Part shown: positions 9,438-34,922 of the stretch, piece by piece | Layout of the letters: every line of letters begins with the position of its first letter | How positions within the stretch are numbered: the stretch's first letter is position 1 | Source of the DNA: an uncultured Methanosarcinales archaeon | GTDB taxonomy: Archaea; Nanobdellota; Nanobdellia; Woesearchaeales; CAZOXR01 | DNA length: 64,000 bases | Assembly (NCBI GenBank): GCA_964566535.1 | Contig: CAZMIO010000003.1 | Coordinates: 1 to 64,000, forward strand | Reading direction: 5' to 3' | Translations under genes and position numbers: made by a program | Notes under the pieces: generated by a model | The model's database searches: none | What the model saw: the letters and a program-made list of their open reading frames with translations, nothing else | Told to the model about the DNA's origin: nothing

Positions 9438-10454
9438 ATGGCAAGAAAATACAAAATTGCAACATTAGGATCTCATTCTGCACTGCAAATACTGAAAGGA
9501 GCAAAAGACGAAGGCTTCGAAACTATAGCAATCTGTAAAAGAGGCACCGAAAAAGTATACCAGTCTTTCAAAGTTGCAGACAAGATAATTCTGATTGATG
9601 ATTACAAAGAAATCCTTGGGATGCAAAAAAAACTAATTGAGGATAATGTAATAATCATACCTCACGCTTCATTCATCTCATACATAGGTCCAGAAGCAAT
9701 GAGCAAATTGAGAGTTCCATATTTTGGGAATAAAGACATTCTAAGATGGGAATCAGACAGGGGTTTAGAAAGAAAGTGGCTAAAAGCAGCTAAACTAAAA
9801 CAACCTAAAATTTTCAAACATCCAAAATTCATTGACCGTCCAGTTATTGTAAAGTTCCATGGAGCAGGCGGTGGCCAAGGTTACTTCGTAGCAAAGAATG
9901 AAAGCGACTTCAAGAAGAAAATAAAGCTACACAAAGAAGACGAATATGTTATCCAGGAATATGTCCTTGGAGTCCACATGTATGCACATTACTTCTATTC
10001 TCCTATAACTAACAAACTAGAAATAATGGGATTTGACAAAAGATATGAGAGTAATGTTGATTCTTTAGGCCGAGTTTCAGCACGAGACCAAATGGCCCTA
10101 CCTAAAGAACAAGTAGACCCATCATATCTTATTGTTGGAAACATCCCAGTTGTTGTACGAGAATCCTACTTACCAAGATTTCTGGAAATGGGAGAAGATG
10201 TAATTGAAATCTCAAAACGCATTGCTCCACCTGGACTTTTCGGACCATTCTGTTTAGAAACAATCCTAACACCAGAAGGCGAAATAATCACATTCGAAAT
10301 CTCAGCAAGAATTGTAGCAGGAACTAATCCATACATAAACGGAAGCCCTTACACAGATATAACTTATGATGAGCCAATGTCAACAGGAAGACGGATTGCA
10401 AGAGAGATTAAGATAGCAATCGAAAAAGGCCAATTAAGCAAAATATTACATTAG
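9438..10454 (+). CDS. purP: PurP family AICAR formate ligase (ATP-grasp)
   Basis: IATLGSHSALQI, GPFCLE, FEISARIVAGTN, STGRRIAREI. Confidence 0.9.
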   Translation: MARKYKIATLGSHSALQILKGAKDEGFETIAICKRGTEKVYQSFKVADKIILIDDYKEILGMQKKLIEDNVIIIPHASFISYIGPEAMSKLRVPYFGNKDILRWESDRGLERKWLKAAKLKQPKIFKHPKFIDRPVIVKFHGAGGGQGYFVAKNESDFKKKIKLHKEDEYVIQEYVLGVHMYAHYFYSPITNKLEIMGFDKRYESNVDSLGRVSARDQMALPKEQVDPSYLIVGNIPVVVRESYLPRFLEMGEDVIEISKRIAPPGLFGPFCLETILTPEGEIITFEISARIVAGTNPYINGSPYTDITYDEPMSTGRRIAREIKIAIEKGQLSKILH

Positions 10455-11945
10455 GTGATTCTTATGCAAAAGAAAAAAAAGAGAATAGTCAAACAAATAA
10501 AATCTAACAAACCAAAAAAACGTGGCTTTCTAGTTAAATTTAATCACGTAAAATCAAAGAAAAAGACACACAAACCAAAGAAAAGCTTCCTTAAAATCAC
10601 ATCTGCACATCACAAAAAATCTACACAAACAAATAAAAAACCAAAAAAGAAAGGCTTTCTACAGATTAAAACAATACACAAACCATCACTTCAAGAAGAA
10701 GCTAAACCTACAATAATACAAACTACTCCCCAACCAGAAAAACATTCAGATTTCGGAGGCTTTTTTGAAAAAAAGTTCGAAAACGTAGTCCACAAAATAG
10801 AAAATTTTATGGGAAAGAAAGTAACTCAGGAAAACATAAACAAAGTTCTAGCCTCATACAATAAAAGTGAGATAACAATTGGAGTCCTCGGAGGACATTC
10901 TGCATTAGATGTCTGCAGGGGAGCAAAACTACAAGGTTTTAGAACAGTGGCCGTCTGTCAAAAGGGCCGTGAAAAAACGTATGATAAATACTACAAAACA
11001 AGAGACAACAAAGGAATAGTAGATGAAGTTATAATAGTAAACAAATTCTCAGACATAACAAAAAAAGAAGTTCAGGAAAAACTTAGATCACTTAACACAA
11101 TATTTATCCACAACAGATACTTTTGGGTTTACTGCGATTTCAAAGAAATAGAACAAAACTTCCTAGTTCCAATCTATGGTACAAGAACAATGCTAAAACT
11201 AGAAGAACGAGACGTTCCAAAAAACCAATATTATTTGATGCAAAAAGCAGGAATAAGAATACCGAAAATATTCTCAACTCCAAAGTCAATTGACCGGTTA
11301 GTAATAGTCAAAGTTGCAGAAGCAAAAAGAAGTTACGAGCGTGCTTTCTTCTTCTGTTCAAGCTACAAACAATATCAAGAAAAATCTCAAAGACTAATCA
11401 AAGAAAAATCAATTACGGAGGAAGCTCTAAAAATAGCAGTAATAGAAGAATACATTGTTGGAGCACAAGTAAACTTTAATTATTTTTACTCACCATTAAC
11501 AGACGAACTAGAATTGATGGGGACAGACACAAGACGTCAAACAAACATTGACGGATTAATTAGAATTCCAGCAGACCAGCAATTAGAAGTTTTAAAACTA
11601 ATAAAGCCAAAACTTGTCGAAACTGGCCACATTGCCTGCACAACAAAAGAATCAATAATAGAAAAGATATTTGAGCTAGGTGAAAAGTTCGTTGCAACAT
11701 GTAAAAAAGAACACGCCCCAGGGATTATTGGCCCATTCGCATTGCAGGGAGCAATCTCAGCTGACTCAGGAAAAGAAGAACCAGTTATCTTTGACGTTTC
11801 AATGAGAATTCCAGGCTCGCCAGGAACAGCATTTACACCATACTCTGGCTACCTTTACCAAAACTCAATCTCTTATGGAGAAAGAATAGCAATGGAGATA
11901 AAAAAAGCAAAAGAAGAAGATAAACTAGACTTAATATGCACTTAA
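10455..11945 (+). CDS. PurP-like paralog with Lys-rich N-terminal extension
   Basis: IGVLGGHSALDV, IIGPFALQG, RIPGSPG, GERIAMEI; start uncertain. Confidence 0.85.
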   Translation: MILMQKKKKRIVKQIKSNKPKKRGFLVKFNHVKSKKKTHKPKKSFLKITSAHHKKSTQTNKKPKKKGFLQIKTIHKPSLQEEAKPTIIQTTPQPEKHSDFGGFFEKKFENVVHKIENFMGKKVTQENINKVLASYNKSEITIGVLGGHSALDVCRGAKLQGFRTVAVCQKGREKTYDKYYKTRDNKGIVDEVIIVNKFSDITKKEVQEKLRSLNTIFIHNRYFWVYCDFKEIEQNFLVPIYGTRTMLKLEERDVPKNQYYLMQKAGIRIPKIFSTPKSIDRLVIVKVAEAKRSYERAFFFCSSYKQYQEKSQRLIKEKSITEEALKIAVIEEYIVGAQVNFNYFYSPLTDELELMGTDTRRQTNIDGLIRIPADQQLEVLKLIKPKLVETGHIACTTKESIIEKIFELGEKFVATCKKEHAPGIIGPFALQGAISADSGKEEPVIFDVSMRIPGSPGTAFTPYSGYLYQNSISYGERIAMEIKKAKEEDKLDLICT

Positions 11946-11946
11946 A

Positions 11947-13485
11947 ATGATTTTAGTAATAAACTATGGAGGACAGTATTGTCATCTCATTGCAAGACGT
12001 GTTAGAGACCTCGGTGTTTATTCAGAAGTTGTACCTTACGACGTATCAATTGGAGAAATACAAAAACTAAATCCTAATGGAATCATATTCTCAGGAGGGC
12101 CTTCTTCCGTTTACGAAAAAAACGCTCCAAAGTCAAACAAAGAAATACTAACTCTAAACATCCCAATCTTAGGAATCTGTTACGGCCAACAGTTAATCGC
12201 AAAACAATTAGGGGCAAAAGTAGAATCAAAAAAAATTAAGGAATACGGAAAAAAGATAGCAAAGATCCAAAGTAAAAAGTCATTGTTAAAAAAACTAAAA
12301 GGCAAAGAGCAAGTTTGGATGTCTCATGGGGACTCAGTATCAAAACTTCCAGAAAACTATAAAATCTTAGCCTCAACAGAAACTTGTAAGATCGCTTCTT
12401 TTGGTAACGACAAAAAGAAAATCTACGGAGTTCAGTTCCATCCAGAAGTTGTTCACACTCCAAAAGGAAATCAGATCCTAAAAAACTTTATCTTCAACAT
12501 TTGTAAAGCAAAAAAAGACTACAACATAAAGGATTTGTCAAGAAGAACAATAAACGAGATAAAAGAAGAAGTCCAGGACGATTTAGTGATTATGGGTACA
12601 TCAGGCGGAGTAGATTCAACAGTTGCAGCAGTATTAGCACATAAAGCAATTGGTGACCATCTACATTGCATATTCGTTGACCACGGCCTTATCAGAAAAA
12701 ACGAAGCAAAAGAAGTAAAATCAATCTACAAAGACAATTTCAACTTCAAACATTTCTACATGGTAGATGCATCCAAACTTTTCCTAAAAAAACTAAGGGG
12801 AGTTACAGATCCAGAAAAGAAAAGAAAAATAATTGGTCATACTTTTATAGAAGTTTTTGAAAAAAAGGCAAAAGAAATCTCAAAGCGCCATAAAAATGTA
12901 AAATTCTTAGGTCAAGGCACCATTTATCCAGACAGGATAGAGTCTGCACAACCTACATCACAGGCATCAAAAATAAAATCACATCATAATCTAACTTTAC
13001 CAGAGAAGATGGACCTAAAGATCATAGAACCATTAAAAGAACTCTACAAAGACGGTGTCAGAGCATTAGGATCGGAATTAAACATCCCAAGAAACCTGCT
13101 CTATCGTCACCCATTCCCAGGTCCAGGCTTAGCAATCAGAATATTAGGCGAAATCACAGATAAACGTATTGATATCTTAAGAGAGGCAGACCATATCTAC
13201 ATGCAGGAACTAAAAAGAACAGGCCAGTACCAAAAGATCTGGCAAGCCTTTGCAGCACTACTACCAGTTAAAACAGTTGGAGTCATGGGTGACGCAAGAA
13301 CATACGAATATGTTATTTCGTTAAGAGCAGTAACCAGTAAAGACGCAATGACGGCAGACTGGGCAAAGATTCCTAATCATATTCTAGAAAAGATCTCAAA
13401 CAGAATCATAAATGAGGTTAATGGTGTTAATAGGGTTGTTTATGATATAACGCAGAAACCCCCGGGAACTATTGAATACGAATAA
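11947..13485 (+). CDS. guaA: GMP synthase (glutamine-hydrolysing, fused)
   Basis: LGICYGQQ, QFHPEV, SGGVDS, HPFPGPGL, KPPGTIEYE. Confidence 0.97.
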   Translation: MILVINYGGQYCHLIARRVRDLGVYSEVVPYDVSIGEIQKLNPNGIIFSGGPSSVYEKNAPKSNKEILTLNIPILGICYGQQLIAKQLGAKVESKKIKEYGKKIAKIQSKKSLLKKLKGKEQVWMSHGDSVSKLPENYKILASTETCKIASFGNDKKKIYGVQFHPEVVHTPKGNQILKNFIFNICKAKKDYNIKDLSRRTINEIKEEVQDDLVIMGTSGGVDSTVAAVLAHKAIGDHLHCIFVDHGLIRKNEAKEVKSIYKDNFNFKHFYMVDASKLFLKKLRGVTDPEKKRKIIGHTFIEVFEKKAKEISKRHKNVKFLGQGTIYPDRIESAQPTSQASKIKSHHNLTLPEKMDLKIIEPLKELYKDGVRALGSELNIPRNLLYRHPFPGPGLAIRILGEITDKRIDILREADHIYMQELKRTGQYQKIWQAFAALLPVKTVGVMGDARTYEYVISLRAVTSKDAMTADWAKIPNHILEKISNRIINEVNGVNRVVYDITQKPPGTIEYE

Positions 13486-13630
13486 ATAGATAGTTACCGC
13501 GGGGTGCCAGAGACTCAAAGTCTCTCAGCACCACCAGGGACGATAGAATACGAATAGAAATGAGTCCCTGCGTGGTTCAAGAAATATCAAAGATTTCTAA
13601 GAACCCCCTGGCACAATCGAGTATGAATAA
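13486..13630 (+). repeat. Two ~72-bp units, each a hairpin plus a recoded copy of the guaA 3' end (PPGTIEYE*)
   Basis: Copies at 13531..13557 and 13604..13630 versus native 13459..13485; hairpins 13503..13532 and 13574..13605. Confidence 0.85.
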
Positions 13631-13652
13631 ATAATAAACACAAATAGAATTT

Positions 13653-13982
13653 CTAAGCTCTTCTAAGAGTTGCCCCTCGAGGTGCTTTTCGCGGAGAATC
13701 TAACTCATCTCTTGCCTCATCTAATTTTTCAATTTTAGCTTTAATATCCTTTATTCGAGCATTAGCATCCGCTCTTGTCTGAGAATATCTACTTCCATCA
13801 ACTAATTTCGTTCCTTTTCCTCTTTGACCAACAACTATCCCTTCTTGTTCGCTTAATTGAAGACGAAGAACTCCTAACTTCTTATCTATCGCCCGAACCT
13901 TATCTACTCTCTCAGCTTCTTTCTCTTCCGGTGTTTTTCTTTTCCATGGCCAGTTCATAATACTACCTCTCAACATACTCAT
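13653..13982 (-). CDS. Hypothetical coiled-coil protein
   Basis: 109-aa ORF; likely start MNWPWK after GAGG. Confidence 0.55.
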   Translation of the reverse strand: MSMLRGSIMNWPWKRKTPEEKEAERVDKVRAIDKKLGVLRLQLSEQEGIVVGQRGKGTKLVDGSRYSQTRADANARIKDIKAKIEKLDEARDELDSPRKAPRGATLRRA

Positions 13983-14010
13983 ATTTAAATCTTTTCCTAT
14001 TAAGAAACAA

Positions 14011-15558
14011 TCAACAATTCCTAGCAGTCATGCCCTCTTCCTGCTTCCCCTGCTTATAATTACTAAGTGAGTTTTTATACAACTTCTTACCGCAAGGAGT
14101 AGGATAATCAGAATTCAAACAAGCCATACATAAATCTCCCTTAGGTAACCCAATCGATCTAACCAATCCAGGAATTGTTTGGTAAATTACTGAATCTGCA
14201 CCTAAATCTTTAGCAATCTTCTCACAAGTTTTGTCAGAAATTTTTTCAGGATCAAGTTCTTTTTCATATTGAGGGGCAAGCAATTCAGAAATAGTGGACA
14301 TATCGATTCCATAGAAACAAGGAGCTTTAATTGGTGGACAACTAACTCTCAAATGAACTTCCTTAGCCCCACCTTCATTCTTCAAAAATCTTACAATTTT
14401 CTCACTAGTAGCCCCTCTTACTACACTATCATCAACCAAGATTACTTTTTTATCTCTGAGAATTTTTCGGAGTACTGTAAATTTGTTCTGTATCATATTA
14501 TTTCTGCCAGAACCCTCTATAAAGGTTCTTCCAACATATCTGTTTCTAATCAAACCCTCCATTGAAGGAACTCCTAGCGCGTAAGCCATAGCATCTCCAG
14601 CAGCCTTACCAGAGTCAGGAACCGGAACCACAATGTGATCAGGAGTTATCTTCTCAGTTTCTAATTTAGCTAGTTCCTGGCCGAGTCTAGTTCTAGTTAA
14701 ATAAACAGACCTTCCATCAATAACCGAACTTACATTTGCAAAATAAACATATTCAAACATACAATGAGCTTTCCTCTTGCTTTTTGCAAACCGTTTGACT
14801 TCAATAGAATCTCCCTCAACAGTTATTACCTTGCCTGGTTCTAATGAATGGAACTTTTTCATTCCAGAATTCTGCAATGCATTACTTTCAGAAGCAGCAA
14901 GCATCATCCCATCTTTAATCCCATAACTTAATGGCCTTATCCCTAATGGGTCTCTACAAACGGCCAAATCCCCATAACCATTAACAAAAGCAATATTATA
15001 AGCACCATCAAACCCCTTACTAAGGTTAGAGAACACATTTACCATATCAGGTTTATTTCTCCCCATCAACTCCCTTGCAATATAATGCATGACAATCTCA
15101 GTATCTGCTTCAAGAATAAAGTGATAATCTGTTTTCTTCATAAGCTCAGCTTTTAATTCTTTATAGTTTGCAATCGTACCATTAAAACCAAAAGAAAACC
15201 ACTTCCATTTCCTTCCGTGCTTTCTCTCAAACGGTTGAGCATAACTTCTTTCTTCTAATCCACATGTCGCATACCTTACATGTCCAATCCCTTTATTCCC
15301 TTCATACTTCCTAAACAACTCTGCACTCCTCTGCTGGCTCCTCGTCCTAAAAACCTCATTAACAGGACCAAGTTGTCTGTAAGTATTAATCAGTGCAGAC
15401 CTATTCTTATTATAAGTTGTAAAACCAGTGCTTAACTGCCCTCTATTCTGCAGATTCAACAGCATCTTATATAGATAGAACAAAGCTTTCTTAGAGGCAT
15501 CTCCGTTTTCCTTCAAGTACACTGCCGCAATGCCGCACTCATCATGAACTTCTGCCAT
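14011..15558 (-). CDS. purF: Amidophosphoribosyltransferase
   Basis: ECGI N-terminal nucleophile, NLQNRGQ, GHVRYAT, LVDDSVVRG, PCFYGIDM, CMAC. Confidence 0.96.
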   Translation of the reverse strand: MAEVHDECGIAAVYLKENGDASKKALFYLYKMLLNLQNRGQLSTGFTTYNKNRSALINTYRQLGPVNEVFRTRSQQRSAELFRKYEGNKGIGHVRYATCGLEERSYAQPFERKHGRKWKWFSFGFNGTIANYKELKAELMKKTDYHFILEADTEIVMHYIARELMGRNKPDMVNVFSNLSKGFDGAYNIAFVNGYGDLAVCRDPLGIRPLSYGIKDGMMLAASESNALQNSGMKKFHSLEPGKVITVEGDSIEVKRFAKSKRKAHCMFEYVYFANVSSVIDGRSVYLTRTRLGQELAKLETEKITPDHIVVPVPDSGKAAGDAMAYALGVPSMEGLIRNRYVGRTFIEGSGRNNMIQNKFTVLRKILRDKKVILVDDSVVRGATSEKIVRFLKNEGGAKEVHLRVSCPPIKAPCFYGIDMSTISELLAPQYEKELDPEKISDKTCEKIAKDLGADSVIYQTIPGLVRSIGLPKGDLCMACLNSDYPTPCGKKLYKNSLSNYKQGKQEEGMTARNC

Positions 15559-22381: not shown

Positions 22382-22936
22382 TTGGAAAAAATCAGTAAAA
22401 TCATCAAAAAAGAGGCAAATCTATACAATTACCCTAATGATAAGACCAAAATTTTTGGATTATACCTTAAAAACATCGAAGAATTTGACGAAATCAACCA
22501 AAAAACAGACACTTTACAACAAAAGTTCAATTTGAGCTCAGACGAAATTCTAGATTTCTTAGACCAAAAAAACAACTTAGCTTACATCCCAATAAGCATA
22601 TTCAACAACAAATTAGCTCCTTTAGAAGCAGTAGTTCTATTCCTAAAAAACACATTAAAGTTCAAATTTCAAAAAATTTCCTACTTACTTAACAGAGATC
22701 AAAGAACAATTTGGTATACTCACAAAAAAGCAACAAAAAAAGACGTCAAATTAAACATTTCTTCAAAAATATTGGTAGACATCTCAATATTCGGAGACAG
22801 AAAATTCTCAATTCTTGAAAGCTTAGTTGCACATCTCAAAGATTCCCTTTCACTTAAACAAATCGCCAAACTAATTGGCAAATCCTACAAGACAATCTGG
22901 ACAGTTGATAGCAGATACAAAAAGAAAAATGAATAA
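22382..22936 (+). CDS. Duplicated-HTH DNA-binding protein
   Basis: Two repeats: SIF..LEAVVLFLK..ISYLLNRDQRTIW and SIF..LESLVAHLK..IAKLIGKSYKTIW. Confidence 0.75.
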   Translation: MEKISKIIKKEANLYNYPNDKTKIFGLYLKNIEEFDEINQKTDTLQQKFNLSSDEILDFLDQKNNLAYIPISIFNNKLAPLEAVVLFLKNTLKFKFQKISYLLNRDQRTIWYTHKKATKKDVKLNISSKILVDISIFGDRKFSILESLVAHLKDSLSLKQIAKLIGKSYKTIWTVDSRYKKKNE

Positions 22937-25900
22937 GCATACAAAAGAAGTGATGTTAGTAAGTACATTCTTCCTATTGTTATTCTTATCATTATTCTAC
23001 TTACAGCCATCCTTCACTGGATCAATAGTTCAAGAACAACAATTAAACTATTCTGAAAACTTAAATCTAGAGTTCGCTGATAGTTCTAATTATGTATGGG
23101 AACCTGATAATATCGGAGAACTAAGAAACCTAGAACTAAGCGGAATCATAACCTCCGGAACCAACGCAAAAGTATACCTAGAAAACAACGGATTAACTTA
23201 CTTAGTCTTAGACACATCTCAATTAGATAAATCTGGATTACCGTCAATTACTGGTTTAGTTGTTTTAAATGAAACAAACAATACAATAAACAAAACCACA
23301 TCAATAAATAAAACAATAACCAATGAAACTAACGAAACATTAACTATCAATCAAACTTTAATCAACGAAACAACCCCAATCACTAACCAAACAACACCAA
23401 TAACTAATCAATCATTAGAAAACCAAACTTTAGTTAACCAAACAACAATAACAAAAACAATAACCTCATCACTAACCTACCAAGACAACTCAGCATTCGA
23501 CCAAAACAACGACGGTATCGAAACTACAACAGGAGTTATTGACTTCAAACTAAATTCAAACTTCAACTGGAACGTAGACCACAACAAACTTTGCACCAAA
23601 TACGAAATCTACTCAGAAGAAAATCAAACATCAACTTTAACATGCTACGGATCAACACAATGCTGCTCATTAGTCGACCTAACACCAGAAAAAGATTCTT
23701 GGAATGAAACATTATACTTAAACTTAGGAAAATACGACTCAACATCAAACAACTTAGTCTCATCACAAACAATCTACGCAAACTACAGTTTAGCAGTAGA
23801 AAACCCTTACTCAGAAATCATTACCTCAAATTCAAACATCCTAAGTGCAAAATTCCTAGAAAACCAAATACCATTCAACAACATCTGCATTGACACATGC
23901 TTACTCTCAAACCTAAACTCCCCATCCTACAACTTAATAATTAACATAACTAATGGCTCAATAAACCTAAACAAGATAGATTATTCAATAATTGAAACAA
24001 TTCAAAACATAGCCGAGAACCTAACCCAAGATACACTAACAACAAAAGAAAGAGTCACAATTGGTAAACCGGTAAAATGGATTAAGAAAATAAAACTAAA
24101 AGAAAGCTCAAACTTAACAATTAAAGTTCCAGAATCAGCTACAAAAATCTCAATAATAAAAATTGAAAACAATACCAAGAAAGAAATTAAAAAAGAAAAC
24201 CTAAATTTCAAAGACAAAACAAAGAAACAGAACCTTATAACTGGAGCAGCCACTACAAACTTAGAACTAATTGAAAACCAGACAGAAATAATAATAACAG
24301 AACCAATTGAAGAACTAGAAATAGAATACGAAACACCAGGACCACAAGCAATTGAAGAAAACATCAACGAAAACAAAAAGAAGATAGTAATCTCTTCAGA
24401 CATCCATTACGAAAACATCCTAGCATTTACACAATTACCAAAAGAAGTGGGTGAACAAGCATTAAAACTTTATTGGATAGTGAACAATTCAAAACAACAA
24501 ATCAACTTCAATGCTTACGACTTAAACAACAACAACTTAATTGATTACATAGAATGGACAGTTCCTCATTTAAGCAACCAAACATACGAATTAGAAATTG
24601 TTGTATTAAACATCCATTCCTACCCACCATTAGGTGGAAACTGGACAGTTATGTTCAACACATCTGGAACTGGCAACCTAACAATAACAGCAACACAAGG
24701 AACAACTTACTCTGAAATGTTCAACGATAACCAATCAACTTCTAATGATTTAGAAATCCTAGAATTAAAATGTGGAGATAACATCCTATTCAACAAATAT
24801 GATAATCTTAATGCCAACAACACATTTATTTTACTAAATGACAACTCTAAAACTAAACTAACCGACACAACTAACCAATCATTAGCAGTAAACGGATTAT
24901 TTGTAGAAAACTATAATTGTGATAACAAAACAGCCTACCACACAATAAAAGAACTAACAACTGGTAGCCATTACCAATTATTAAATTTCTCAGGACAATT
25001 AGCAAATGCCCAAAACCTAGTAACGGTACATAACTGGAATAATAAGACAATTGACACTTCTGGAAATCATTCCTGGCCTACTGATTTAGTTGCTCCAGAT
25101 CCGAATACAATATACATTGCTTATCTAAATAAAACGGATGAAGCGGTAATATTTGCAAATTCTAGTGATGGAGGAGAAACATGGTCAACTAAATATCTAC
25201 ATGATGCTAATTGGCAGAATACCGGATCTATAAGCATTGATGCAATTAACAGGAGCCATATCTATTTAACATTCAATAATCAAACAGGTCCTTGGCTTAC
25301 TTACTCCACTGATTTTGGACAAACATGGGACTCTAAAAGGGCCGATACCTCCAATGATCAAAAGGGATTAGATATTGAGGTACTTGATGAAAACAATATA
25401 TTCATAGTATACGATGATGCTGGTAATGATGTTAGAGTACTAAACACTAGCGATGGTGGGGATACATGGTCAGAAGTTGAAGCTTGGGATTCTCTTACTC
25501 TTAATCCTTATGGTATTTCTACGGATGTTCTAAACAAAAGTCATATATATATTGCCGCTGCAAATTTTACAAATGGGGATCTAGTATTCATCAAATCAAC
25601 TGATGGCGGTAGAAATTGGATTAATCGTTCGATTTATGACAATTGGGGTAGAGACCCAATAATAAAAGTAGTAGATGAAAACAACATACATATTGCATTT
25701 GTAGATGGGTCTGGTACTGGTGATGTTTATTTAACTTCAACCACTGATGGGGGGGACACATGGAATGCATTACCAGTAACTTCATCAAATCAGGAAAGAT
25801 ATATTGACATGGACATCCTCAGCAACGATATTATGTTTATCAGTTATTTTAATGATTCAAACGACAACCTTGGTATTGCTAAAACAATTGATGGTGGATC

Positions 25901-28900
25901 AACTTGGACGCATGAATCTATCGATACCGAGGGTGATGTTGGTAGATGGACATCAATTGATGCAGTTGGTGAAGATAATGTATTTATTGCTTATATCAAT
26001 GACGATGAAGACGCCTTAAGGTTCGCAAGAACAAATGTTTCACTCAACTTCTCATTTACATTAAATTCGCCAGCAGATAATCTATTCAGTTCCAACACCA
26101 CAATCATCTTCAACTGGACAGTTATTAATAATCTGGATTCAACTTTTGAATGCAACTTAACAATTAACAACCTAGTAAACATATCAAATGTACTAACAAC
26201 AAGCAGAATCGCAACTAATGTTACAGTAACTGGGTTCAATATAAGCACACACAACTGGAACATTACATGTATAGATGATATAGGGAATACAAATTCATCT
26301 GAGACAAGATCCTTCAGCATAGATACAGCACCACGCTCCTCAGATTCAGCAAATTTAAATGAATGGAGAATGGATGGAAGAACTTTAAACGGAACCCATT
26401 ATTATCCAGGTGCTATCCCCGATGATATTTCTCAGTTAGAAGTAAGATCTTATGCAGCAGGAGCTTCTACTCAGGATATGTCTATTGCTGATGGATATTT
26501 ATGGGCAGCCCCACTTAGATTAGGTTTAGTAAAACTAAATGCCACTAATGTTAGTCAATTAATTGATGAAGGTGCAGACCATGACCTTTTCAGAACCCTT
26601 GTATCTCCTGTTTGGGATAATTTTGTTTATGCTGGATCAGAGAGTGGTGCCATCTACCAATATAACACTTCTAATCTATCCCATATTATTGCTACCAACA
26701 CCCTTTCAAATGCACAACATTACAGCTCTCCAATAGTATATGAAAGATACGTTTATTTCACTGACTGGCATGGTACTGGCGGCAACTTCATATACCAAGC
26801 AAATGCTAGCAATGTCTCCCAAATAATTAACAGCTTTTCATTTAGTAGTTGTAAAAACGCTCCAATAATCTACATGGGTTACCTATATCATGGTTGTGGC
26901 AGTACATTCCTTCAACTAAATGCAACTAACGTCTCCATAGAAATAGCCAGATATAGTGCAGGGGGATCGTTTGACACAGGTATTGGTTTTGCAGCTGCAA
27001 ATGGTTATGTATATCTCGGTAATGATGATGATAAGTTTTATCAACTCAATGCTTCAAATGTTAGTATAAAAATTGCAGATTACACAACTGGTGGCGATAT
27101 AGACGGTTCACCTGCAGTTGCAAATGGATTTGTTTACATAGGCAGCAATGATGGCTATACTTATCAACTGAATGCTTCAAATGTCAGCCAGCAAATTGCA
27201 AATTATAGCACTGGAGCAGTTAATGATGGTGTATCAGTTACAGATGACTATTTATTAGTCGGAGGCAATGGAGCAGTATGGCAGCTAGAAGCTTCAGACA
27301 TCAGCCAGTTTGTTGCTAATTATACAATAAGTGGTCCTGGAACACCGACTATAGCTGGAGGAATCATCTATTTCAGCTCAGGATCTACATATTACCAATT
27401 GGGTACAGGTGAGCCTGTTACAACACTTAATGCTCCTGATGATAATTATGAATTTGGTCAATCATTAGTTAATGTATCCTTCAATTGCTCAGCATATGAT
27501 GGTATTGGATTAAAAAATATAAGTTTATTTTTAACTAATAGCTCCAATCAAAGCTTTAGCTTAAATCAATCATCAACTCTCGCAAGTACAACTAATTCAA
27601 GTGCTTGGACAGTAGAACTTGCAGAAGGCAACTATACTTGGAATTGTCTAACATTTGATACTGACGGAAAATTCGATTGGGCTACAAATAGATCTATGGG
27701 CTCTGACAGAACCATACCTACAATAACAATAGACACACCAGCAAACAACACATTTACGATTGATAATAATTTAGATATTAACTATACAGTTACAGATCAA
27801 AATCCAGACTCTTGCTGGTACAGCAATGACTCAATGACTACAAATACCTCACTTACTAATTGTACAACAAATATTGTCTCAGTAACTTGGACTGAAAAAC
27901 AACATAATGTTACAATTTGGGTCAATGACACAGTTGGAAACATAGGCAATGCTTCAGTAACTTTCACTATAGACGACACAAACCCCTCATTTACAAATAT
28001 CTCAAATCAAACAGCAGAGTATGGAACTGCGTTAGGCTACGATATAAATGCAACTGACTCAGTTGGTGTCAATTGTTTCACTGTTAACGACACAACTAAT
28101 TTCAAGATTAATTGTTCCGGATTTTTAGAAAATAATACTGTTTTGGGACTTAACTTATACTCATTAAACATAACCATTAACGATTCAGCAGGAAATCTAA
28201 ATTTAAGCTTAATGTGGGTTAACGTTTCAGATACAACACCACCTAACTTTACAAGTATTTTAAACCAATCAATCTTTGATTTGGACGCATTAGCCTACGA
28301 TATAAACGCTTCAGATATACATAATGTCAGCTGCTTTGGAGTAAATGACAGCTCATTCAAGATTAACTGCTCAGGTTACTTGGAGAACAATACTGCACTA
28401 AACACTACAGCATATTGGTTGAATATCTCTGTAAATGATTCATCTGGAAATTTTAACTATGAATTTATGTGGGTTAACATTACACTTAAACCAGTGATTG
28501 GTTTGGAGTTAATTGCACCTACAAAAAATATGAATGCAACTCAAGGAGTATTCTTTAATGTAACTGTAAATATAAGCTGTAGTAGAGCTGATTGTGACGA
28601 AATTAATGTCAGTTTAGACCCTTTTAATACATTAATATTCCAAGATGAGTTTGAAAGAACAGATCTTGGTGGTAATTGGACAGCCAGTGGAAGCGGAACA
28701 TGGGAAACTTCTACAACCTGTACAGAACTTGGAACCTATTCTATGAGACATGGAGGTTCTTTAGGAACTGTCACTTCAAAAGTTATTGATCTAAGTGGTT
28801 ATGATGCTGTTAATTTCAGTTATTGGGTCAAAGAGGCTGATGGCTGCGCAAATGCTCCAGAAAGCGGAGATGATTTCTCCGTAGAGTATTATAATAGCTC

Positions 28901-31900
28901 CGGATCATGGGTTGAACTAAATAGCCTAATTGGAGGCTCACCATATTATAAAGACGTAGTTATACATAATCTTTCATCAGATGCATTCCATGCAGATTTC
29001 CAGATAAGATTTAATGCAGCTGGAACTGCAGGAAACTATGATTATTGGAATATTGATAATCTTAACATAACTGGCAGACCTATTAAGAATGGATTAGTGT
29101 CAATGAGCACATCAGCAGTCCCTTTCTACACAAATACCACAAATCCTTTCAATATCACATTAAGCAATGGTTCATCCTCATTAATAACTTGGTCAGTTAA
29201 TGCAACTGGCGACCCTAACTCGATCCACGAGTTCTATGTATATGCAAACAAAACATCAAAATTATCACTAAGCAACTTAACTCAAATATGGAATGTTACA
29301 ATTATAGCTGCTATTAATGACTTCACATCACCAACAATACCTAATTTAACTGATCCATCTCCAATAGATAACCTAAACACAACCAATACTACATTTAACT
29401 TTAACTGGACTGTAACTGATGAAGCCGATTTAAGCCTATCATGCGATCTCGTAATAAATGGAGATACTAATGGAAGTAGCATTGCAACTCCAAATGCAAC
29501 TGGAGCTAACTACACCGTAACCGGTTTCAATGACGGAACATATGTATGGAATGTTACTTGCACCGATGACGGCTCAAACTCAAACACCTCGGTAACAAGA
29601 ACATTTACAGTAGATACATTTCAACCAGTTATAACCTTGGACATTCCAGCAAATAACACCTGGCAGAAAGATGGCAACGTTACCATAAAGTACACAACAA
29701 CTGATTCCAATCTAGATTCTTGCATCTTATACGGCAACTTCAATGGTTCATGGCTGGCAAACCAAACAAACACCAGCGTTACCTCGGGAGTTCAAGATAC
29801 ATTCAACCTAAATCTAACAAACGGCACCTACTTATGGAACGTCTGGTGTAATGATACATTGGGTAACGAAGGGTTCAATAACACCTACAATTCAACCTTC
29901 TATATAGACACAATACTGCCAGCAATAACATTAAATGGTCCAATCCAAAACTTCAACACATCGGCATCAAACATAGAATTCAACTGGACAGCAATCGATA
30001 ACCTAGACCCATCATTATTATGTAATTTAACTATTAACGACCTAGTAAATGAATCACTCATTTCTTCAAACAACGGCACAAACACAAACATAACAGTAAC
30101 AGGATTCCAAGATGGCTCTTACCTCTGGAACATAACTTGCATTGACAACACAACTAACATAAATACTTCAATAACAAGAAATTTAACAGTAGATCTAACA
30201 GCCCCACAACTATACTTTGATGCATCAACCTTAAATGCTTCAACATACTACTCACAAAACTACATATTTGTAAATGTAAGTGTTACAGAAACAAACTTAA
30301 AAAACATAACTTACTACCTATATAATTCCTCAGGCCTAGAAATCAATCAAACCTATACTTCTCAAACATTCACTCATAACTTCACTTCATTAAAAGATGG
30401 TGCCTACTCAATTAACGTTACAATCTTTGACCAAGCCGGAAATTCAAACTCAACTCCAACAAGAACTGATATAATCTTAGATACATTATATCCTGCAATA
30501 GAATTTGTAAACCTTACACCAGAGAACAACACCTACCAATTAGAAACATACGTGATCATAAATACAACAATAACAGAAACAAACTTAAAAGAAGTAAAAT
30601 ACGGCTGGAACAATACTAACTATACAATGTACAACGATTCTTTAGTATTAATGATGAACTTTGATAATGTTTCTTCTTTGGGTGAAAACAATACATATGT
30701 TGTGGATATAAGTGGAAACGATTATAATGGAACAGCACTAAACGGTCCAGTGATAAATTCAACTGGAAAATACACTGGAGCAATTCATTTTGATGGGGAT
30801 GATGATCACCTACAAATACCAACCATAACCTTTGCTAATGATTTTGCAATTTCTTTTTGGTGGAATATTAATCACGATAGTAAATATCGTTTTGCTATAT
30901 CTGAAGATTCCACAGGATCATCTGTTAAGATTGGACATAATGACGATGGATCAAATTTCTTTGTACGTGTCATAAATGGTGGTTCATCCGACACGTCTGT
31001 GTCTTTGCCAAGCGAAAATGAATGGCACTATATCACTGTTGTGAGGGATTCATCTGATAAAGTAGATCTATATATAGATGATTCTACACCAACTAGGCTA
31101 TTCTCTGATGCCGCACAAAACGGAAATTCAGTCTGGTCTGTTATTGGTAGGGGAGCTTCTGATCTAGGACAATACATTAATGGAACTCTCGATGAATTAC
31201 GCATATGGAATAGAACATTAAATGCAAACCAAGTCTACCAACAATACATCTCAAACCTAAAGAAAATAGACACAGATAAATGGGAATTATATGTAAACCA
31301 AAGCAAGAACTCAACCGTAGGATTAGAAAATGGGAGTTACACATATCAAGTTATTGCATCCGATATTGCAGAAAACACAAACTCAACTGAAGAAAGAACA
31401 ATAATAATAGACACAACACCTCCGACAATAAACCTGGACCTGCCATTAAACAACACATGGCAAAATGACGAAAGTGTTGCATTCAAATATACTCCAACAG
31501 ATCCTGCAGGCATAGACACATGCACTTTATACGGAAACTTCAACGGCTCTTGGCTCTCAAATGAATCAGATTCTTCAGTAGCATCAGCTTCACAATCAAC
31601 ATTCAACATTAACTTGAGTGATGGAATCTACATATGGAACGTCTTATGCAACGATACAGCAGGCAGTTCAGCCTTCAATTCAACCAACTTAACAATCAAC
31701 ATAGACACACTCCCTCCAACAATCAACCTATCAGCACCAGTTAACGAATATAATTCCTCCAACTCATCAGTACAATTCAACTGGACAGCAATTGATAACC
31801 TCGACATAAACCTAACTTGTAACTTGACAATAAACAACCAAGTAAATGTATCATTAATAGAATCAACTAACAACTCAATAATGAACATAAGTGTATCCGG

Positions 31901-33875
31901 ATTCAAAGACGACACATATTACTGGAATGTAACTTGTATGGATAACGCAACTAACGTAAACACTTCTGAAACAAGAATATTTAGGGTAGATTTGGACTCT
32001 CCATCAATAAACTTAATCTCTCCAATTAATAATTCGGGAGATACAGATGGAAATTTATCATTCAACTATATTGTAGATGATACAAGCCCTGTAACAAATT
32101 GTTCATTAATCATTAACGATGAAATCAACATAACAAATAATTCAATAACTAAATCAATAACTCAATCATTCACTTTATACAATTTTGCAACTAACAATTA
32201 TAATTGGTCAATAAACTGTACTGACAATTATAATCAAACAAATCAAAGCGAAGAAAGAACCATAACAGCAATACCTACATCAGAGTACCTTGTATTGAAC
32301 TTAACTAATGTGAATATGACAAATATTACTAACTTCTACTTAAAAAATGATAATTACGGCTTAATCAACTTCACAAATCAAATAAACTTACAATCTGGAA
32401 TTGATATTGATTCCAACGTAAACATATCAAACAACAGAATTGAGCTAAACTCAACTGCAATACCTACATTAAACATTCCAGCAACACTCTACCTATACAA
32501 CCTAACATTCACCAACCCAAGAATCTTAAAAGATGATTCACCATGCGATTCATCAATCTGCACTAAAATAGACTATACTGACGGAACATTAGAATTCACA
32601 GTAACTCAATTTTCAGTTTACTCAGCAGATGAAACCCCAATACCTCCAACACCTACACCAGTAGCCGCAGCAGCAGCTGGAGGAGGTGGTGGAGGCGGAG
32701 GAGTTCCTTCAAGATACAAATGCAACAAAGACTCAGAATGTGATGCAGATGAAAAATGTATCGACAAGATCTGCGTAAAACTATTCGATGCAAAGGTGAT
32801 TAGAGTAGATTCACCAATAGAACCTGGAGAACTGCTAGACTTCACATATTACATTAAAGGAATGGCAAATATCTCTGGAGATGTTATCGTAAACTTCTGG
32901 TTAGAACATAACAACAAAACAATAACTTCCAGCTCAGACACAATCTACTTAAACTCTTACGAAGACAAAACCGAATCAACATACATACCATTACCATTAG
33001 ACCTTGAAAGGGGGACATATACTTTCTATGTTGAAGTTAACTACTTACAATACAAAGCAAGAGCTCATAGACAAATAGAAATAATGGAAGGAGCACCTTC
33101 AACACTAGATTTCAATTTACTCCCAATTAAAGAAACATCCTCAGCTGAATTATTTGAATTCTCATATGTTCTAGCAACAAATAAAGACATAACAACAACA
33201 GTCTTCGTTGAAGAAAGAATAAAAGAAAAAGGAAAGATCATCTGGTCCAAAGACAGGCATATAGACGTAGCAAGAACCATGACATTAACAGAGCCAGTCG
33301 GAACACTAAAAGCTGGAGTATACCAATTAGAATTATCTACTACCCATCAAAACAAAACAACTAGATTAGAGCATACATTCACTATAGAAAGATCAGTAAA
33401 AGACTACATTTCTTATCTAGGACCACCAGAAAGAATCTTCAACTTCTTGATCTTAATAATCTTAGGAGTCATAGCTGTATACGGTCTTTACGGACTAACA
33501 ACAGTAATAGCTAGAGAAACAATAGGCAGAGTAAAATATTCAGATTATCTGAAAAACATGGAAACTGAATTAGGAGAAGGAAATGTAGACGACTTCCTTT
33601 CAGACCTGCAAAACAAAATCAGAAACTACCAAAATAAAGGCTACAATAAAAGAAAGATTGAAAATGCATTATCAAAGAGCGAATGGCCAAAAGTCATAGT
33701 AGAGAGACAAATACTAGATATGAAAAAAGAAGAAAAATCATTCTTTAAATTAGTAAAGTACATAGAAAAAGAACTGAAAAAAGGAATTAAACCTTTAACA
33801 ATAAAATCAATATTATCAAAATACGGATGGAATCCTTATTTAATAAACAAAGCATTCAGAAAAATAAAGAAATAA
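22929..33875 (+). CDS. Giant membrane-anchored surface glycoprotein/adhesin (BNR/Asp-box propeller, PQQ-like propeller, Ig-like repeats, LamG, C-terminal TM)
   Basis: N-terminal hydrophobic helix, dense NxS/T sequons, SxDGGxTW repeats, YQLNASNVS repeats, FDGDDD..WHYI..NGTLDELRIWNR, poly-G linker, TM; ATG 22929 overlaps HTH gene end. Confidence 0.85.
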   Translation: MNKHTKEVMLVSTFFLLLFLSLFYLQPSFTGSIVQEQQLNYSENLNLEFADSSNYVWEPDNIGELRNLELSGIITSGTNAKVYLENNGLTYLVLDTSQLDKSGLPSITGLVVLNETNNTINKTTSINKTITNETNETLTINQTLINETTPITNQTTPITNQSLENQTLVNQTTITKTITSSLTYQDNSAFDQNNDGIETTTGVIDFKLNSNFNWNVDHNKLCTKYEIYSEENQTSTLTCYGSTQCCSLVDLTPEKDSWNETLYLNLGKYDSTSNNLVSSQTIYANYSLAVENPYSEIITSNSNILSAKFLENQIPFNNICIDTCLLSNLNSPSYNLIINITNGSINLNKIDYSIIETIQNIAENLTQDTLTTKERVTIGKPVKWIKKIKLKESSNLTIKVPESATKISIIKIENNTKKEIKKENLNFKDKTKKQNLITGAATTNLELIENQTEIIITEPIEELEIEYETPGPQAIEENINENKKKIVISSDIHYENILAFTQLPKEVGEQALKLYWIVNNSKQQINFNAYDLNNNNLIDYIEWTVPHLSNQTYELEIVVLNIHSYPPLGGNWTVMFNTSGTGNLTITATQGTTYSEMFNDNQSTSNDLEILELKCGDNILFNKYDNLNANNTFILLNDNSKTKLTDTTNQSLAVNGLFVENYNCDNKTAYHTIKELTTGSHYQLLNFSGQLANAQNLVTVHNWNNKTIDTSGNHSWPTDLVAPDPNTIYIAYLNKTDEAVIFANSSDGGETWSTKYLHDANWQNTGSISIDAINRSHIYLTFNNQTGPWLTYSTDFGQTWDSKRADTSNDQKGLDIEVLDENNIFIVYDDAGNDVRVLNTSDGGDTWSEVEAWDSLTLNPYGISTDVLNKSHIYIAAANFTNGDLVFIKSTDGGRNWINRSIYDNWGRDPIIKVVDENNIHIAFVDGSGTGDVYLTSTTDGGDTWNALPVTSSNQERYIDMDILSNDIMFISYFNDSNDNLGIAKTIDGGSTWTHESIDTEGDVGRWTSIDAVGEDNVFIAYINDDEDALRFARTNVSLNFSFTLNSPADNLFSSNTTIIFNWTVINNLDSTFECNLTINNLVNISNVLTTSRIATNVTVTGFNISTHNWNITCIDDIGNTNSSETRSFSIDTAPRSSDSANLNEWRMDGRTLNGTHYYPGAIPDDISQLEVRSYAAGASTQDMSIADGYLWAAPLRLGLVKLNATNVSQLIDEGADHDLFRTLVSPVWDNFVYAGSESGAIYQYNTSNLSHIIATNTLSNAQHYSSPIVYERYVYFTDWHGTGGNFIYQANASNVSQIINSFSFSSCKNAPIIYMGYLYHGCGSTFLQLNATNVSIEIARYSAGGSFDTGIGFAAANGYVYLGNDDDKFYQLNASNVSIKIADYTTGGDIDGSPAVANGFVYIGSNDGYTYQLNASNVSQQIANYSTGAVNDGVSVTDDYLLVGGNGAVWQLEASDISQFVANYTISGPGTPTIAGGIIYFSSGSTYYQLGTGEPVTTLNAPDDNYEFGQSLVNVSFNCSAYDGIGLKNISLFLTNSSNQSFSLNQSSTLASTTNSSAWTVELAEGNYTWNCLTFDTDGKFDWATNRSMGSDRTIPTITIDTPANNTFTIDNNLDINYTVTDQNPDSCWYSNDSMTTNTSLTNCTTNIVSVTWTEKQHNVTIWVNDTVGNIGNASVTFTIDDTNPSFTNISNQTAEYGTALGYDINATDSVGVNCFTVNDTTNFKINCSGFLENNTVLGLNLYSLNITINDSAGNLNLSLMWVNVSDTTPPNFTSILNQSIFDLDALAYDINASDIHNVSCFGVNDSSFKINCSGYLENNTALNTTAYWLNISVNDSSGNFNYEFMWVNITLKPVIGLELIAPTKNMNATQGVFFNVTVNISCSRADCDEINVSLDPFNTLIFQDEFERTDLGGNWTASGSGTWETSTTCTELGTYSMRHGGSLGTVTSKVIDLSGYDAVNFSYWVKEADGCANAPESGDDFSVEYYNSSGSWVELNSLIGGSPYYKDVVIHNLSSDAFHADFQIRFNAAGTAGNYDYWNIDNLNITGRPIKNGLVSMSTSAVPFYTNTTNPFNITLSNGSSSLITWSVNATGDPNSIHEFYVYANKTSKLSLSNLTQIWNVTIIAAINDFTSPTIPNLTDPSPIDNLNTTNTTFNFNWTVTDEADLSLSCDLVINGDTNGSSIATPNATGANYTVTGFNDGTYVWNVTCTDDGSNSNTSVTRTFTVDTFQPVITLDIPANNTWQKDGNVTIKYTTTDSNLDSCILYGNFNGSWLANQTNTSVTSGVQDTFNLNLTNGTYLWNVWCNDTLGNEGFNNTYNSTFYIDTILPAITLNGPIQNFNTSASNIEFNWTAIDNLDPSLLCNLTINDLVNESLISSNNGTNTNITVTGFQDGSYLWNITCIDNTTNINTSITRNLTVDLTAPQLYFDASTLNASTYYSQNYIFVNVSVTETNLKNITYYLYNSSGLEINQTYTSQTFTHNFTSLKDGAYSINVTIFDQAGNSNSTPTRTDIILDTLYPAIEFVNLTPENNTYQLETYVIINTTITETNLKEVKYGWNNTNYTMYNDSLVLMMNFDNVSSLGENNTYVVDISGNDYNGTALNGPVINSTGKYTGAIHFDGDDDHLQIPTITFANDFAISFWWNINHDSKYRFAISEDSTGSSVKIGHNDDGSNFFVRVINGGSSDTSVSLPSENEWHYITVVRDSSDKVDLYIDDSTPTRLFSDAAQNGNSVWSVIGRGASDLGQYINGTLDELRIWNRTLNANQVYQQYISNLKKIDTDKWELYVNQSKNSTVGLENGSYTYQVIASDIAENTNSTEERTIIIDTTPPTINLDLPLNNTWQNDESVAFKYTPTDPAGIDTCTLYGNFNGSWLSNESDSSVASASQSTFNINLSDGIYIWNVLCNDTAGSSAFNSTNLTINIDTLPPTINLSAPVNEYNSSNSSVQFNWTAIDNLDINLTCNLTINNQVNVSLIESTNNSIMNISVSGFKDDTYYWNVTCMDNATNVNTSETRIFRVDLDSPSINLISPINNSGDTDGNLSFNYIVDDTSPVTNCSLIINDEINITNNSITKSITQSFTLYNFATNNYNWSINCTDNYNQTNQSEERTITAIPTSEYLVLNLTNVNMTNITNFYLKNDNYGLINFTNQINLQSGIDIDSNVNISNNRIELNSTAIPTLNIPATLYLYNLTFTNPRILKDDSPCDSSICTKIDYTDGTLEFTVTQFSVYSADETPIPPTPTPVAAAAAGGGGGGGGVPSRYKCNKDSECDADEKCIDKICVKLFDAKVIRVDSPIEPGELLDFTYYIKGMANISGDVIVNFWLEHNNKTITSSSDTIYLNSYEDKTESTYIPLPLDLERGTYTFYVEVNYLQYKARAHRQIEIMEGAPSTLDFNLLPIKETSSAELFEFSYVLATNKDITTTVFVEERIKEKGKIIWSKDRHIDVARTMTLTEPVGTLKAGVYQLELSTTHQNKTTRLEHTFTIERSVKDYISYLGPPERIFNFLILIILGVIAVYGLYGLTTVIARETIGRVKYSDYLKNMETELGEGNVDDFLSDLQNKIRNYQNKGYNKRKIENALSKSEWPKVIVERQILDMKKEEKSFFKLVKYIEKELKKGIKPLTIKSILSKYGWNPYLINKAFRKIKK

Positions 33876-33911: not shown

Positions 33912-34922
33912 TTAAATCACAATTCTATTTAGTTTCTTCTGTTTCTCTTCAGATATAAATCCGATCTTTTCTTTAAATATCTTAAAATCTTTCTTGTAAG
34001 TTATAAATATTTTATATGTATGCTTAGTTTCTCCTTTCTTGGTTTTATACTCCCTTTTGAAGATAGGGCCTTTGACTTTTATTCCAAGGCTGTTTAAGAG
34101 TTTCTTGTTATCCAAAAGTAGATTTGATGTCTTATCTTTTTTAACATCTATTGTATTTGTTAAATCAATCACTCTTCCACCATTTGAATCTTTCCTAATG
34201 TAAACTGAGCCATCATCATCAAATGCTTGTCTTAAGAACTCACCTTTCACTATATCATCACTATCAATTATGAACTCAGGTATCTTCTGATTACTTATAG
34301 TCTTTGGCCCATCGCAAATGCCAATACCGTACTTTAAGATTATTCCTAATATTTTTGGAAAATTGGGATGTGTATCCTCTAGATTTATTTTCATATTTCC
34401 TATTAAAGATATTGATTTTTCTATCAAATTCAATCTTAATCTTTTATTATAATTTCTATAGAAAGGATATAGAAGTGGCTCTTTTATTAACCCTCCATCA
34501 TGTAGAATAGCTGAAATCAATACTGCCCCTTCTGGACAATTGAAATTTATTGGAAATTTGGGCGAATATATGAATTTTCCATTAGTTTTTGTGCCTATTT
34601 TCATTATATTATCCATTATAGTTTCGTGACTGATTTTAAAGTAATCATGGACATACAGGAAATTAATCATTTTTTCAAAAAAAGCCAGTGATTTACTCTG
34701 CCCGTTAAAGAAATTCATTACCTCATGGAAAGGCACCCTCGCATACAACGAAATATATTTCTTTGTTTTGCCCTTTTTTAATAATATTTCTTTAAATTTA
34801 GATTTAAAATCATCATTTAGCTGAATATAAACTAAATTATATGGAAGATCCCATAAATCTGTAATTCCAGTAATATTACCTTTAGGCTTATATTCATCAA
34901 ACAATTTATTATTTAAATTCAT
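33912..34922 (-). CDS. Free-standing two-motif LAGLIDADG homing endonuclease
   Basis: ISAILHDGG and FLRQAFDDDGSV, FKEKIGF; no intein splice residues or host extein. Confidence 0.85.
   Translation of the reverse strand: MNLNNKLFDEYKPKGNITGITDLWDLPYNLVYIQLNDDFKSKFKEILLKKGKTKKYISLYARVPFHEVMNFFNGQSKSLAFFEKMINFLYVHDYFKISHETIMDNIMKIGTKTNGKFIYSPKFPINFNCPEGAVLISAILHDGGLIKEPLLYPFYRNYNKRLRLNLIEKSISLIGNMKINLEDTHPNFPKILGIILKYGIGICDGPKTISNQKIPEFIIDSDDIVKGEFLRQAFDDDGSVYIRKDSNGGRVIDLTNTIDVKKDKTSNLLLDNKKLLNSLGIKVKGPIFKREYKTKKGETKHTYKIFITYKKDFKIFKEKIGFISEEKQKKLNRIVI

Follow-up and report, generated by a model that had tools for sequence, protein, structure and literature searches.

Three stacked guaA gene ends in a Woesearchaeales archaeon and a dispersed family of small two-hairpin insertions

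Phage 21 and e14, which integrate at icd, and the islands that target tRNA and tmRNA genes are inserted at the 3′ end of a gene and bring with them a replacement for that end. Here we discuss three consecutive copies of the 3′ end of guaA, the gene for GMP synthase, which are found with intervening hairpins in a window of 64,000 nucleotides (nt; positions 1 to 64,000 of contig CAZMIO010000003.1, our C3) from the genome (G000; 1.45 Mb, 91% complete) of an uncultured Woesearchaeales archaeon. On balance the evidence leans towards two serial insertions, at guaA, of a mini-element of approximately 72 nt that encodes no protein, forms two hairpins and carries a surrogate gene end. As with the gene-3′-end integrative elements, such a mini-element would supply a working end that is mostly silently different, the resident end would be left downstream, and serial events would stack the ends; unlike those elements, which measure kilobases and encode an integrase, the units at guaA span about 72 nt and contain neither protein nor cargo.

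The IS200/IS605 insertion sequences and their miniature derivatives offer a second comparison. In three accounts of these elements the transposase binds subterminal hairpins, and short internal sequences recognise the cleavage site and the target by base pairing (PMC3201880, PMC5934647, PMC5027513). The hairpin family described below likewise has a hairpin near each end, a strict orientation and a short target beside one end; an internal sequence pairs with the target (here the GGT foot of a hairpin with ACC), small copies are without a protein, and canonical copies appear to be without a long true duplication. It departs from IS200/IS605 in that the target itself forms a hairpin foot and in that a surrogate gene end within an end hairpin is not, as far as our searches show, a described feature of those elements; the distribution of the Y1 transposase, given below, also sets it apart. 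The layout appears to follow the logic of IS200/IS605, and it is a kinship of layout only that we would claim.

Small palindromic repeats within genes are reportedly known from Rickettsia (the Rickettsia palindromic elements) and from Methanocaldococcus (MJRE, said to have been described by Suyama et al. in 2005). Like these and like the miniature inverted-repeat transposable elements known as MITEs, the present family consists of short hairpin repeats in many copies, which sometimes lie in frame in coding regions (one 39-nt insert and two candidates in G000, see below). One survey counts a Woesearchaeal genome among the archaea densest in MITEs, and its definition of a MITE asks for terminal inverted repeats at least 10-15 bp long and for target duplications that measure 2-10 bp (PMC11602168). 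Canonical copies of our family have 3-7 repeated bases, and their inverted repeats are internal hairpins, not termini that span the element. No MITE or palindromic repeat is described with a surrogate gene end and its complement, and our literature search, outside of which the subscription journals largely fell, returned no description of a non-coding element so equipped.

Insertions with long target duplication (ILTD) are presented as inserted DNA that lies between direct repeats of more than 30 bp and lacks both a mobility gene and a known mechanism; the repeats may overlap gene 3′ ends (PMC2853133). Those repeats are near-identical to the empty site and flank whole restriction-modification genes (PMC2853133), whereas at guaA recoded repeats surround two hairpins. 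Membership in ILTD was rejected: the guaA repeat is approximately 32 nt, but its copies differ at 6-8 of 27 bases, and in canonical family members only the 3-7 bases mentioned above are repeated.

The guaA locus and its two units

The C-terminal domain of GuaA is whole (positions 1-92 of the 92 in the GMP_synt_C profile are matched), and the last eight codons and stop of the gene (E1) are followed by two further copies, E2 and E3 (Table 1), with periods of 72 and 73 nt. The initial annotation had reported these copies as silently recoded, and the observation is real: the pairwise differences number 6, 6 and 8, and every one of them is a silent change at a third codon position. Were differences placed at random over the 27 bases, the probability of all falling at third positions would be 2.8e-4 for six and 4e-6 for eight. 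A local duplication that then drifted neutrally cannot account for 6-8 silent differences with zero replacements. The G/T-richness also claimed for the last 25 guaA codons proved weak (G+T of 0.52 versus a mean of 0.41, with 31 of 488 windows equal or higher), and these codons show no shift in composition or in third-position G+C content (GC3).

Each unit comprises a gene end, the complement of that end and a hairpin, 72 or 73 nt in all, and folding brings its two ends together. The complement lies just past the stop codon: the first 14 bases of E1 (13459-13472) form 13 of 14 pairs with 13490-13503 in a1′, with one bulge, and the first 11 bases of E2 (13531-13541) form 11 pairs with a2′. The one-base bulge occupies the same position in both helices. 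E1 and E2 differ at three sites within the helix, and at all three the complement carries the compensating base. Duplexes between foreign partners are predicted at -7.3 kcal/mol (unit-1 complement with E2) and -9.2 kcal/mol (unit-2 complement with E1), compared with the values for own partners in Table 1, and across genomes the complement pairs best with the gene end of its own unit in 6 of 7 units. That the complement matches the copy of its own unit shows that it does not serve as a guide to the displaced target.

Each complement passes directly into a second hairpin (HP2-1 and HP2-2), whose 3′ foot enters the next gene end. These are the related hairpins with compensatory changes that had been noticed at the outset, and they were confirmed, with both feet and inner stems differing by compensating changes. 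The two belong to different subtypes, one with the unpaired bases C/CA and the other with A/AA, which argues against a simple tandem duplication. The complement is anatomy that the initial annotation did not describe. An archaeal bulge-helix-bulge intron was considered and rejected; it needs two 3-nt bulges with a 4-bp helix between them at the junctions, and the predicted helices show a 1-nt bulge and a 1x2 internal loop (by eye).

Table 1. Features at the 3′ end of guaA, in coordinates of the window
Feature	Position	Strand	Remarks
guaA	11947-13485	+	GMP synthase, 512 aa; GATase 3-184, GMP_synt_C 420-511
E1	13459-13485	+	Working guaA end, PPGTIEYE + TAA; also 5′ arm and loop of hairpin 1, unit 1
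a1′	13490-13504	+	Complement of E1; 3′ arm of hairpin 1, unit 1; own duplex -19.6 kcal/mol
HP2-1	13503-13532	+	Family hairpin GGTGC / C...CA / GCACC; 3′ foot enters E2
E2	13531-13557	+	Recoded copy, PPGTIEYE + TAG; gene end of unit 2
a2′	13564-13575	+	Complement of E2; own duplex -20.3 kcal/mol
HP2-2	13574-13605	+	Family hairpin GGTTC / A...AA / GAACC; 3′ foot enters E3
E3	13604-13630	+	Recoded copy, PPGTIEYE + TAA; no complement and no family hairpin behind

The arrangement is not a chimera of the assembly, a concern raised when it was first described. The source organism is present in runs of 14 studies, and an independent 997-nt metagenome contig from run X9, a run that carries no flag as a possible source, spans 12900-13806 with 0 differences; a contig of run X16 spans 13407-13557, again with 0 differences. 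Unit-number variants were not seen, in contigs only, which can hide rare variants, and with the region partly uncovered in runs X5 and X14. In two relatives, G001 (L004, C105) and G015 (L005/L026; C15, C21), the contigs break approximately 27 codons short of the end of guaA, a hint of strain heterogeneity or of a repeat.

A pattern for this gene end matches 47 of the 401 genomes of the order, and the reversed-pattern control matches 0 of 401. At least two intact copies are present in six of the 47: three in G000 and two each in G023, G306, G161, G207 and G132. G207 and G132 are unpublished genomes, and the single-copy counts also include G209, G315 and G374. G199 possesses a decayed second copy with two disabling changes, and G023 an additional third, partial one. 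The module is present in 7 of the 47 genomes and on one metagenome contig (L032; GuaA 70% identity), where PPSTIEYE and a stop are followed 64 nt later by PPATIEYE and a stop. Over nine copy pairs (three from G000 and one each from G023, G306, G161, G207, G132 and L032, the decayed copy of G199 being excluded), third positions account for 43 of the 48 differences; of the other five, three make up a single Ser/Ala change and two are TAA/TGA stop changes. Family-hairpin pattern matches stand beside guaA in G000, G306, G207 and G199, and a hairpin was also read by eye in L032 and G132. Five units are found by the hairpin alone, of which G000 has two and G306, G207 and G199 one each, and four of these five retain an intact downstream copy.

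The copies of G306 and of G023 are near-identical (2 differences in 27 in each genome), and with the decayed copy of G199 they show that young and old states both exist. G207 and G132 belong to one genus, with approximately 83-85% gene identity and 55-60% third-position identity; their second copies differ from each other at four positions, all silent, and are identical at 18 of 18 first and second positions. This is as displaced resident ends of two related genomes should look; selection in place would also fit. The closest GuaA (G038, 73% identity) has a single end copy with an unrelated flank. Two broad GuaA searches of metagenome and genome collections yielded 160 loci, about 155 of bacterial type and about five from close relatives; 153 have one copy, five have no match and L032 has a nearby second copy, while L053, which consists of two separate genes, was not counted as such. 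No nearby second copy was found in the approximately 155 bacterial-type loci. Sliding-window identity between congeners revealed no clear foreign tract next to E1. Distinct from these short copies is the situation in the more distant relatives L007, L011, L012, L013 and L014 (G002, G035, G004, G021 and G032), where the GuaA frame measures 593-658 aa and contains the C-terminal domain a second time, in frame.

A dispersed hairpin family and its insertion sites

The second hairpin of the guaA units belongs to a dispersed family. Used alone as a pattern, it matches 63 of the 401 genomes; approximately 61 of the 107 matches listed, from 30 genomes, are hairpins of 27-35 nt and of one type, on many contigs and with at most five per genome, and the reversed control gave approximately 45 scattered matches (these counts, like those for the Y1 transposase below, were made by eye). 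Among the loci that were fetched, 35 of 54 pattern matches are family-type short hairpins, and 33 of these have five-base feet that pair perfectly, in five variants; the guaA hairpin of G306 is a 36th, just outside the stem criterion. Sorted by their unpaired bases the 35 fall into C/CA (19), A/AA (10), C/AA (5) and A/CA (1), and the consensus is GG-N-N-C / C or A / AGAAAT..ATTTCT / CA or AA / G-N-N-CC. In G000 the only strict copies are the two at guaA, but two looser family-type hairpins lie inside coding frames which they leave unbroken (C10 complement, ~31560-31600; C5:27577-27615).

Away from guaA, 25 of 30 copies lie 16-57 nt upstream of the start of an open reading frame (ORF) on the opposite strand. 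Read from the gene side, canonical copies consist of CACCT[CT], an AT-rich first hairpin, the conserved hairpin and then ACC-T again, CACCT being the antisense of the ribosome-binding motif AGGTG. ACC or CACCT stands at the hairpin-side junction in all copies, as the pattern was designed to require, and T comes next in 27 of 30. The adjacent genes, judged from their first residues only, we take to be housekeeping genes, namely those for elongation factor 2, ribosomal proteins P1 and L7Ae, thermosome, proteasome alpha, enolase, GAPDH and peroxiredoxin. The family hairpin is no fixed regulatory site, because it is absent from the 17 orthologous upstream regions of G000. In G258 it separates two partly recoded copies of the start of a GAPDH-like gene, the copied stretch being the ribosome-binding site and seven codons, and so provides a 5′-end counterpart that mirrors the guaA case.

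Filled and empty sites could be compared in one pair of congeners, G050 and G161, at two sites, and these show that the hairpin family is an insertion. At a ribosome-binding site the single CACCTA of G161 corresponds in G050 to two CACCTA motifs with 55 additional bases between them; the insert contains the first hairpin, the GGT foot and the conserved core, and both arms of the first hairpin fall inside the gap. The second site (G050, L270, C13; G161, L279, C119) has a clean 39-nt in-frame insert within a coding region, with the resident ACC and orthologous flank on the side of the conserved hairpin and a non-orthologous ACCAC plus its complement on the other. In both inserts the resident ACC helps to form the 3′ foot of the conserved hairpin, and the GGT foot of the element is therefore an internal complement of the target. 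The repeated bases number 3 and 6-7, compatible with either a duplication or an element end, and across family copies repeat lengths run from 3 to approximately 55 nt. A canonical member is 39-55 nt in length, has two hairpins and lands immediately 5′ of ACC or CACCT.

Origin of the stacked gene ends

The Lys-Pro-Pro codons of guaA (AAA CCN CCN) contain the ACC target, and in several genomes their antisense is the ribosome-binding-like GGAGGT; guaA was likely chosen as a site through this resemblance of its codons to the usual target of the element. We propose that the element inserts at the junction between Lys and Pro-Pro. At guaA the gene end and its complement occupy the place of the canonical first hairpin, and in this variant the first hairpin would consist of the surrogate gene end (eight codons plus stop) and its complement. 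Judged by structural homology, each unit probably carries its upstream copy as part of the element, because the 55-nt insert has both arms of the first hairpin inside it, and the copy behind the conserved hairpin would be the resident target. The element-borne copy would become the working guaA end, with the resident end pushed downstream as an untranslated relic. By the geometry of the canonical inserts, E3 would be the oldest, displaced resident end: unit 2 would have entered before E3, and then unit 1 before E2. Movement might take place by hairpin-guided single-strand transposition of the IS200/IS605 type, with the enzyme supplied in trans. As to the capture of a gene end, our idea is simply that the element end may reach out to whichever target-like site comes next in the flank, taking the host sequence between. 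Two readings of the recoding remain: the units may have matured as working ends in lineages other than this one, a history that would account for the saturated silent differences, or all copies may be selected as units come and go.

Serial insertion of a minimal element had been suggested in the initial annotation, and that core of the proposal is upheld by the dispersed and insertion-polymorphic hairpin family, by the different subtypes and by the separate complement of each copy. Its premise, that the guaA 3′ end serves as an integration site for islands, is unsupported and unneeded; neither integrase nor cargo lies between or beside the copies.

More tentatively, the guaA units may represent a wider DPANN family of protein-less two-hairpin elements, approximately 40-70 nt in length, that home to a five-base motif via their own foot and regenerate what they interrupt. 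Regeneration would depend upon a first hairpin able to capture adjacent host sequence and its complement, be it a ribosome-binding site, a gene start or a gene end. If this doubtful but possible generalization is true, no insertion element known to repair itself would be smaller, and past transfers between lineages could be read from the stacked gene ends as from a log.

On the favoured reading, mobile DNA of approximately 70 bases, free of genes, would sit harmlessly within an essential gene by supplying the missing codons. Silently recoded ends behind a stop codon are tied to a searchable hairpin family with a defined target motif, giving annotators a rule for such relics, and the usual habitat of the family appears to be beside the ribosome-binding sites of highly expressed genes. 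The elements also provide a compact candidate for sequence-guided insertion and possible markers of gene flow among uncultured DPANN archaea.

Several results weigh against insertion of a mobile element. We have thus far identified no mobilising enzyme for it. The Y1 transposase (PF01797) has 0 matches in the 91% complete G000, and none in G134, which is 95% complete and carries four hairpin copies; it is found in 14 of 30 hairpin-bearing genomes versus 118 of 371 others, a weak and non-significant excess uncorrected for relatedness; and no family hairpin was seen at the six Y1 loci examined, from G258 and G266. It is in these respects that the distribution is unlike that expected of IS200/IS605. 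No Cas1 was found in G000, and its only tyrosine recombinases are two, on C10 and C15. As for the history of the locus, none of the 401 genomes yielded a donor whose working end is E1 or E2; the flanks behind guaA of G161 and G050 have no homology, so that the resident copy is not readable from their alignment, nor is it directly readable from the copies, whose synonymous sites are saturated. Copies in other genomes were found by a coding pattern, which biases the sample to intact ones. Lastly, the guaA ends of G023 (L003:3010-3190) and G161 (L216) are duplicated around spacers unlike the standard family hairpin, and it seems that more than one element type, or another process, acts at the guaA end.

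A reverse transcriptase is present in one of the five multi-copy genomes. Off-target integration of the CRISPR type (Cas1-Cas2) was rejected in view of the lack of Cas1 and of repeat lengths that vary from 3 to approximately 55 nt and are not fixed. We note also a Y1 transposase frame that is split right after HxH by a 52-nt two-hairpin insert related to the family core (L276:1815-1866, on contig C112 of G266).

An unlikely alternative to serial insertion, though the one that survives best, is import by recombination, in which a hairpin element had earlier inserted behind guaA in some lineages and DNA from these, comprising the 3′ part of the gene, its end, the complement and the hairpin, later entered this genome, joined by homology within guaA on one side and by short homology at ACC or at a copy of the gene end on the other, with the foreign ends stacked ahead of the resident one. 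The final anatomy would be the same, and copies that are recoded yet perfect would be accounted for; strain heterogeneity at the contig breaks of G001 and G015 would fit, and so would the richness of the order in small repeats, as given in part of the survey cited above (PMC11602168). Saturation of the silent sites, however, implies donors too diverged for ordinary homologous recombination, as judged from general knowledge of its identity requirements, and the unchanged composition and GC3 of the last 25 codons and the lack of a donor also speak against import.

Local origin is rather unlikely. Here the insertion of complement and hairpin would have duplicated a target of approximately 30 bp, whether by insertion with long target duplication, template switching or fold-back repair, and the copies would have been kept under selection by frequent loss and regain of units. 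The near-identical copies in G306 and G023, the identical copy at a DUF3179-like gene of G000 (see below) and the second copies of G207 and G132 are all in keeping with such an origin, and in all guaA units the left edge of the repeat is exactly where the complement stops. A single duplication followed by drift would, on the other hand, not yield a matched complement and a different hairpin subtype for each copy. Canonical inserts, moreover, repeat only a few bases, and the contigs, the only material examined for this, show no variation in unit number.

We regard it as very unlikely that the region is a functional RNA structure of the 3′ untranslated region or a translated read-through extension of GuaA. 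The predicted fold of the 261-nt guaA end region is much stronger than that of shuffled sequences (z = -4.9), and E2 is in frame with guaA; but E3 is in the +1 frame, and the spacings of copies in other genomes are 64, 68, 78, 60, 122 and 107 nt. Only three of the eight adjacent-copy spacings across genomes are divisible by three, so that the frame of the second copy, raised in the initial annotation as a possible sign of read-through, looks like chance. The module is missing from most relatives, including that with the closest GuaA, and Rfam, at a permissive threshold, has no match in 13000-14200. Hairpins which enclose the stop codon are not supported as a genome-wide habit of G000: at least 10 complementary bases surround the stop at 9 of 1237 ORF ends, versus 4 in shuffles.

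That the copies are att scars of deleted integrase-driven islands or proviruses is hardly credible, for although surrogate gene ends are typical of elements which integrate into gene 3′ ends, only 45-46 nt separate the copies, the same two-hairpin content recurs in several families, no integrase is nearby, the neighbours of guaA are purine-synthesis genes (purP, a purF-like gene and purD), no tRNA or tmRNA lies at the site, and 2.9 million viral contigs gave 0 matches for hairpin plus gene end and 0 for the hairpin alone.

Other loci of the genome and the window

The ends of all ORFs in G000 were scanned for the layout of gene end, complement past the stop, small hairpin and copy, a hairpin with duplicated end at other genes having been a suggested search. 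The layout recurs at three further genes, but their hairpins are not of the guaA type. They lie at C1:39260-39365, C3:183060-183215 (outside the window) and C2:57215-57335, and from our own reading only we presume that the three comprise a threonyl-tRNA-synthetase-like, a DUF3179-like and a NOL1/NOP2/Sun-like gene. The threonyl-tRNA-synthetase-like gene has ten codons copied, of which eight are changed, all silently and including TTG to CTT and CGT to AGG. The DUF3179-like gene has an identical 35-nt copy and a perfect 13-nt complement, and the copy at the NOL1/NOP2/Sun-like gene is recoded and partly decayed.

Two tandem purP-type genes (DUF1246 plus DUF1297; 9438-11945) lie directly upstream of guaA, the second with an N-terminal extension of 140 aa. 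Tandem archaeal purP-type genes in this position fit a host of the Woesearchaeota-type DPANN.

Elsewhere in the window a 3666-aa ORF occupies 22875-33875, and LAGLIDADG-type genes are located at 33912-34922 (minus strand) and 46047-46700 (plus strand), there being 15 such matches genome-wide. ARAGORN reports an odd 90-nt "tRNA-???" at 46681-46770 (minus strand), which overlaps the end of the second of these genes. Repeats of other kinds were also observed in the genome. One of 100-130 nt with the inverted ends TCAAAAACCACC / GGTGGTTTTTGA is found at C12:20230-20500, on the C12 complement at approximately 12950-13230 and at C2:208180-208330, and one of these copies extends over the end of a 716-aa ORF. 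Two tandem structured repeats of approximately 100 nt at C10:21860-22070, the outer stems of which differ by compensating changes, may be small RNA genes or another element family.

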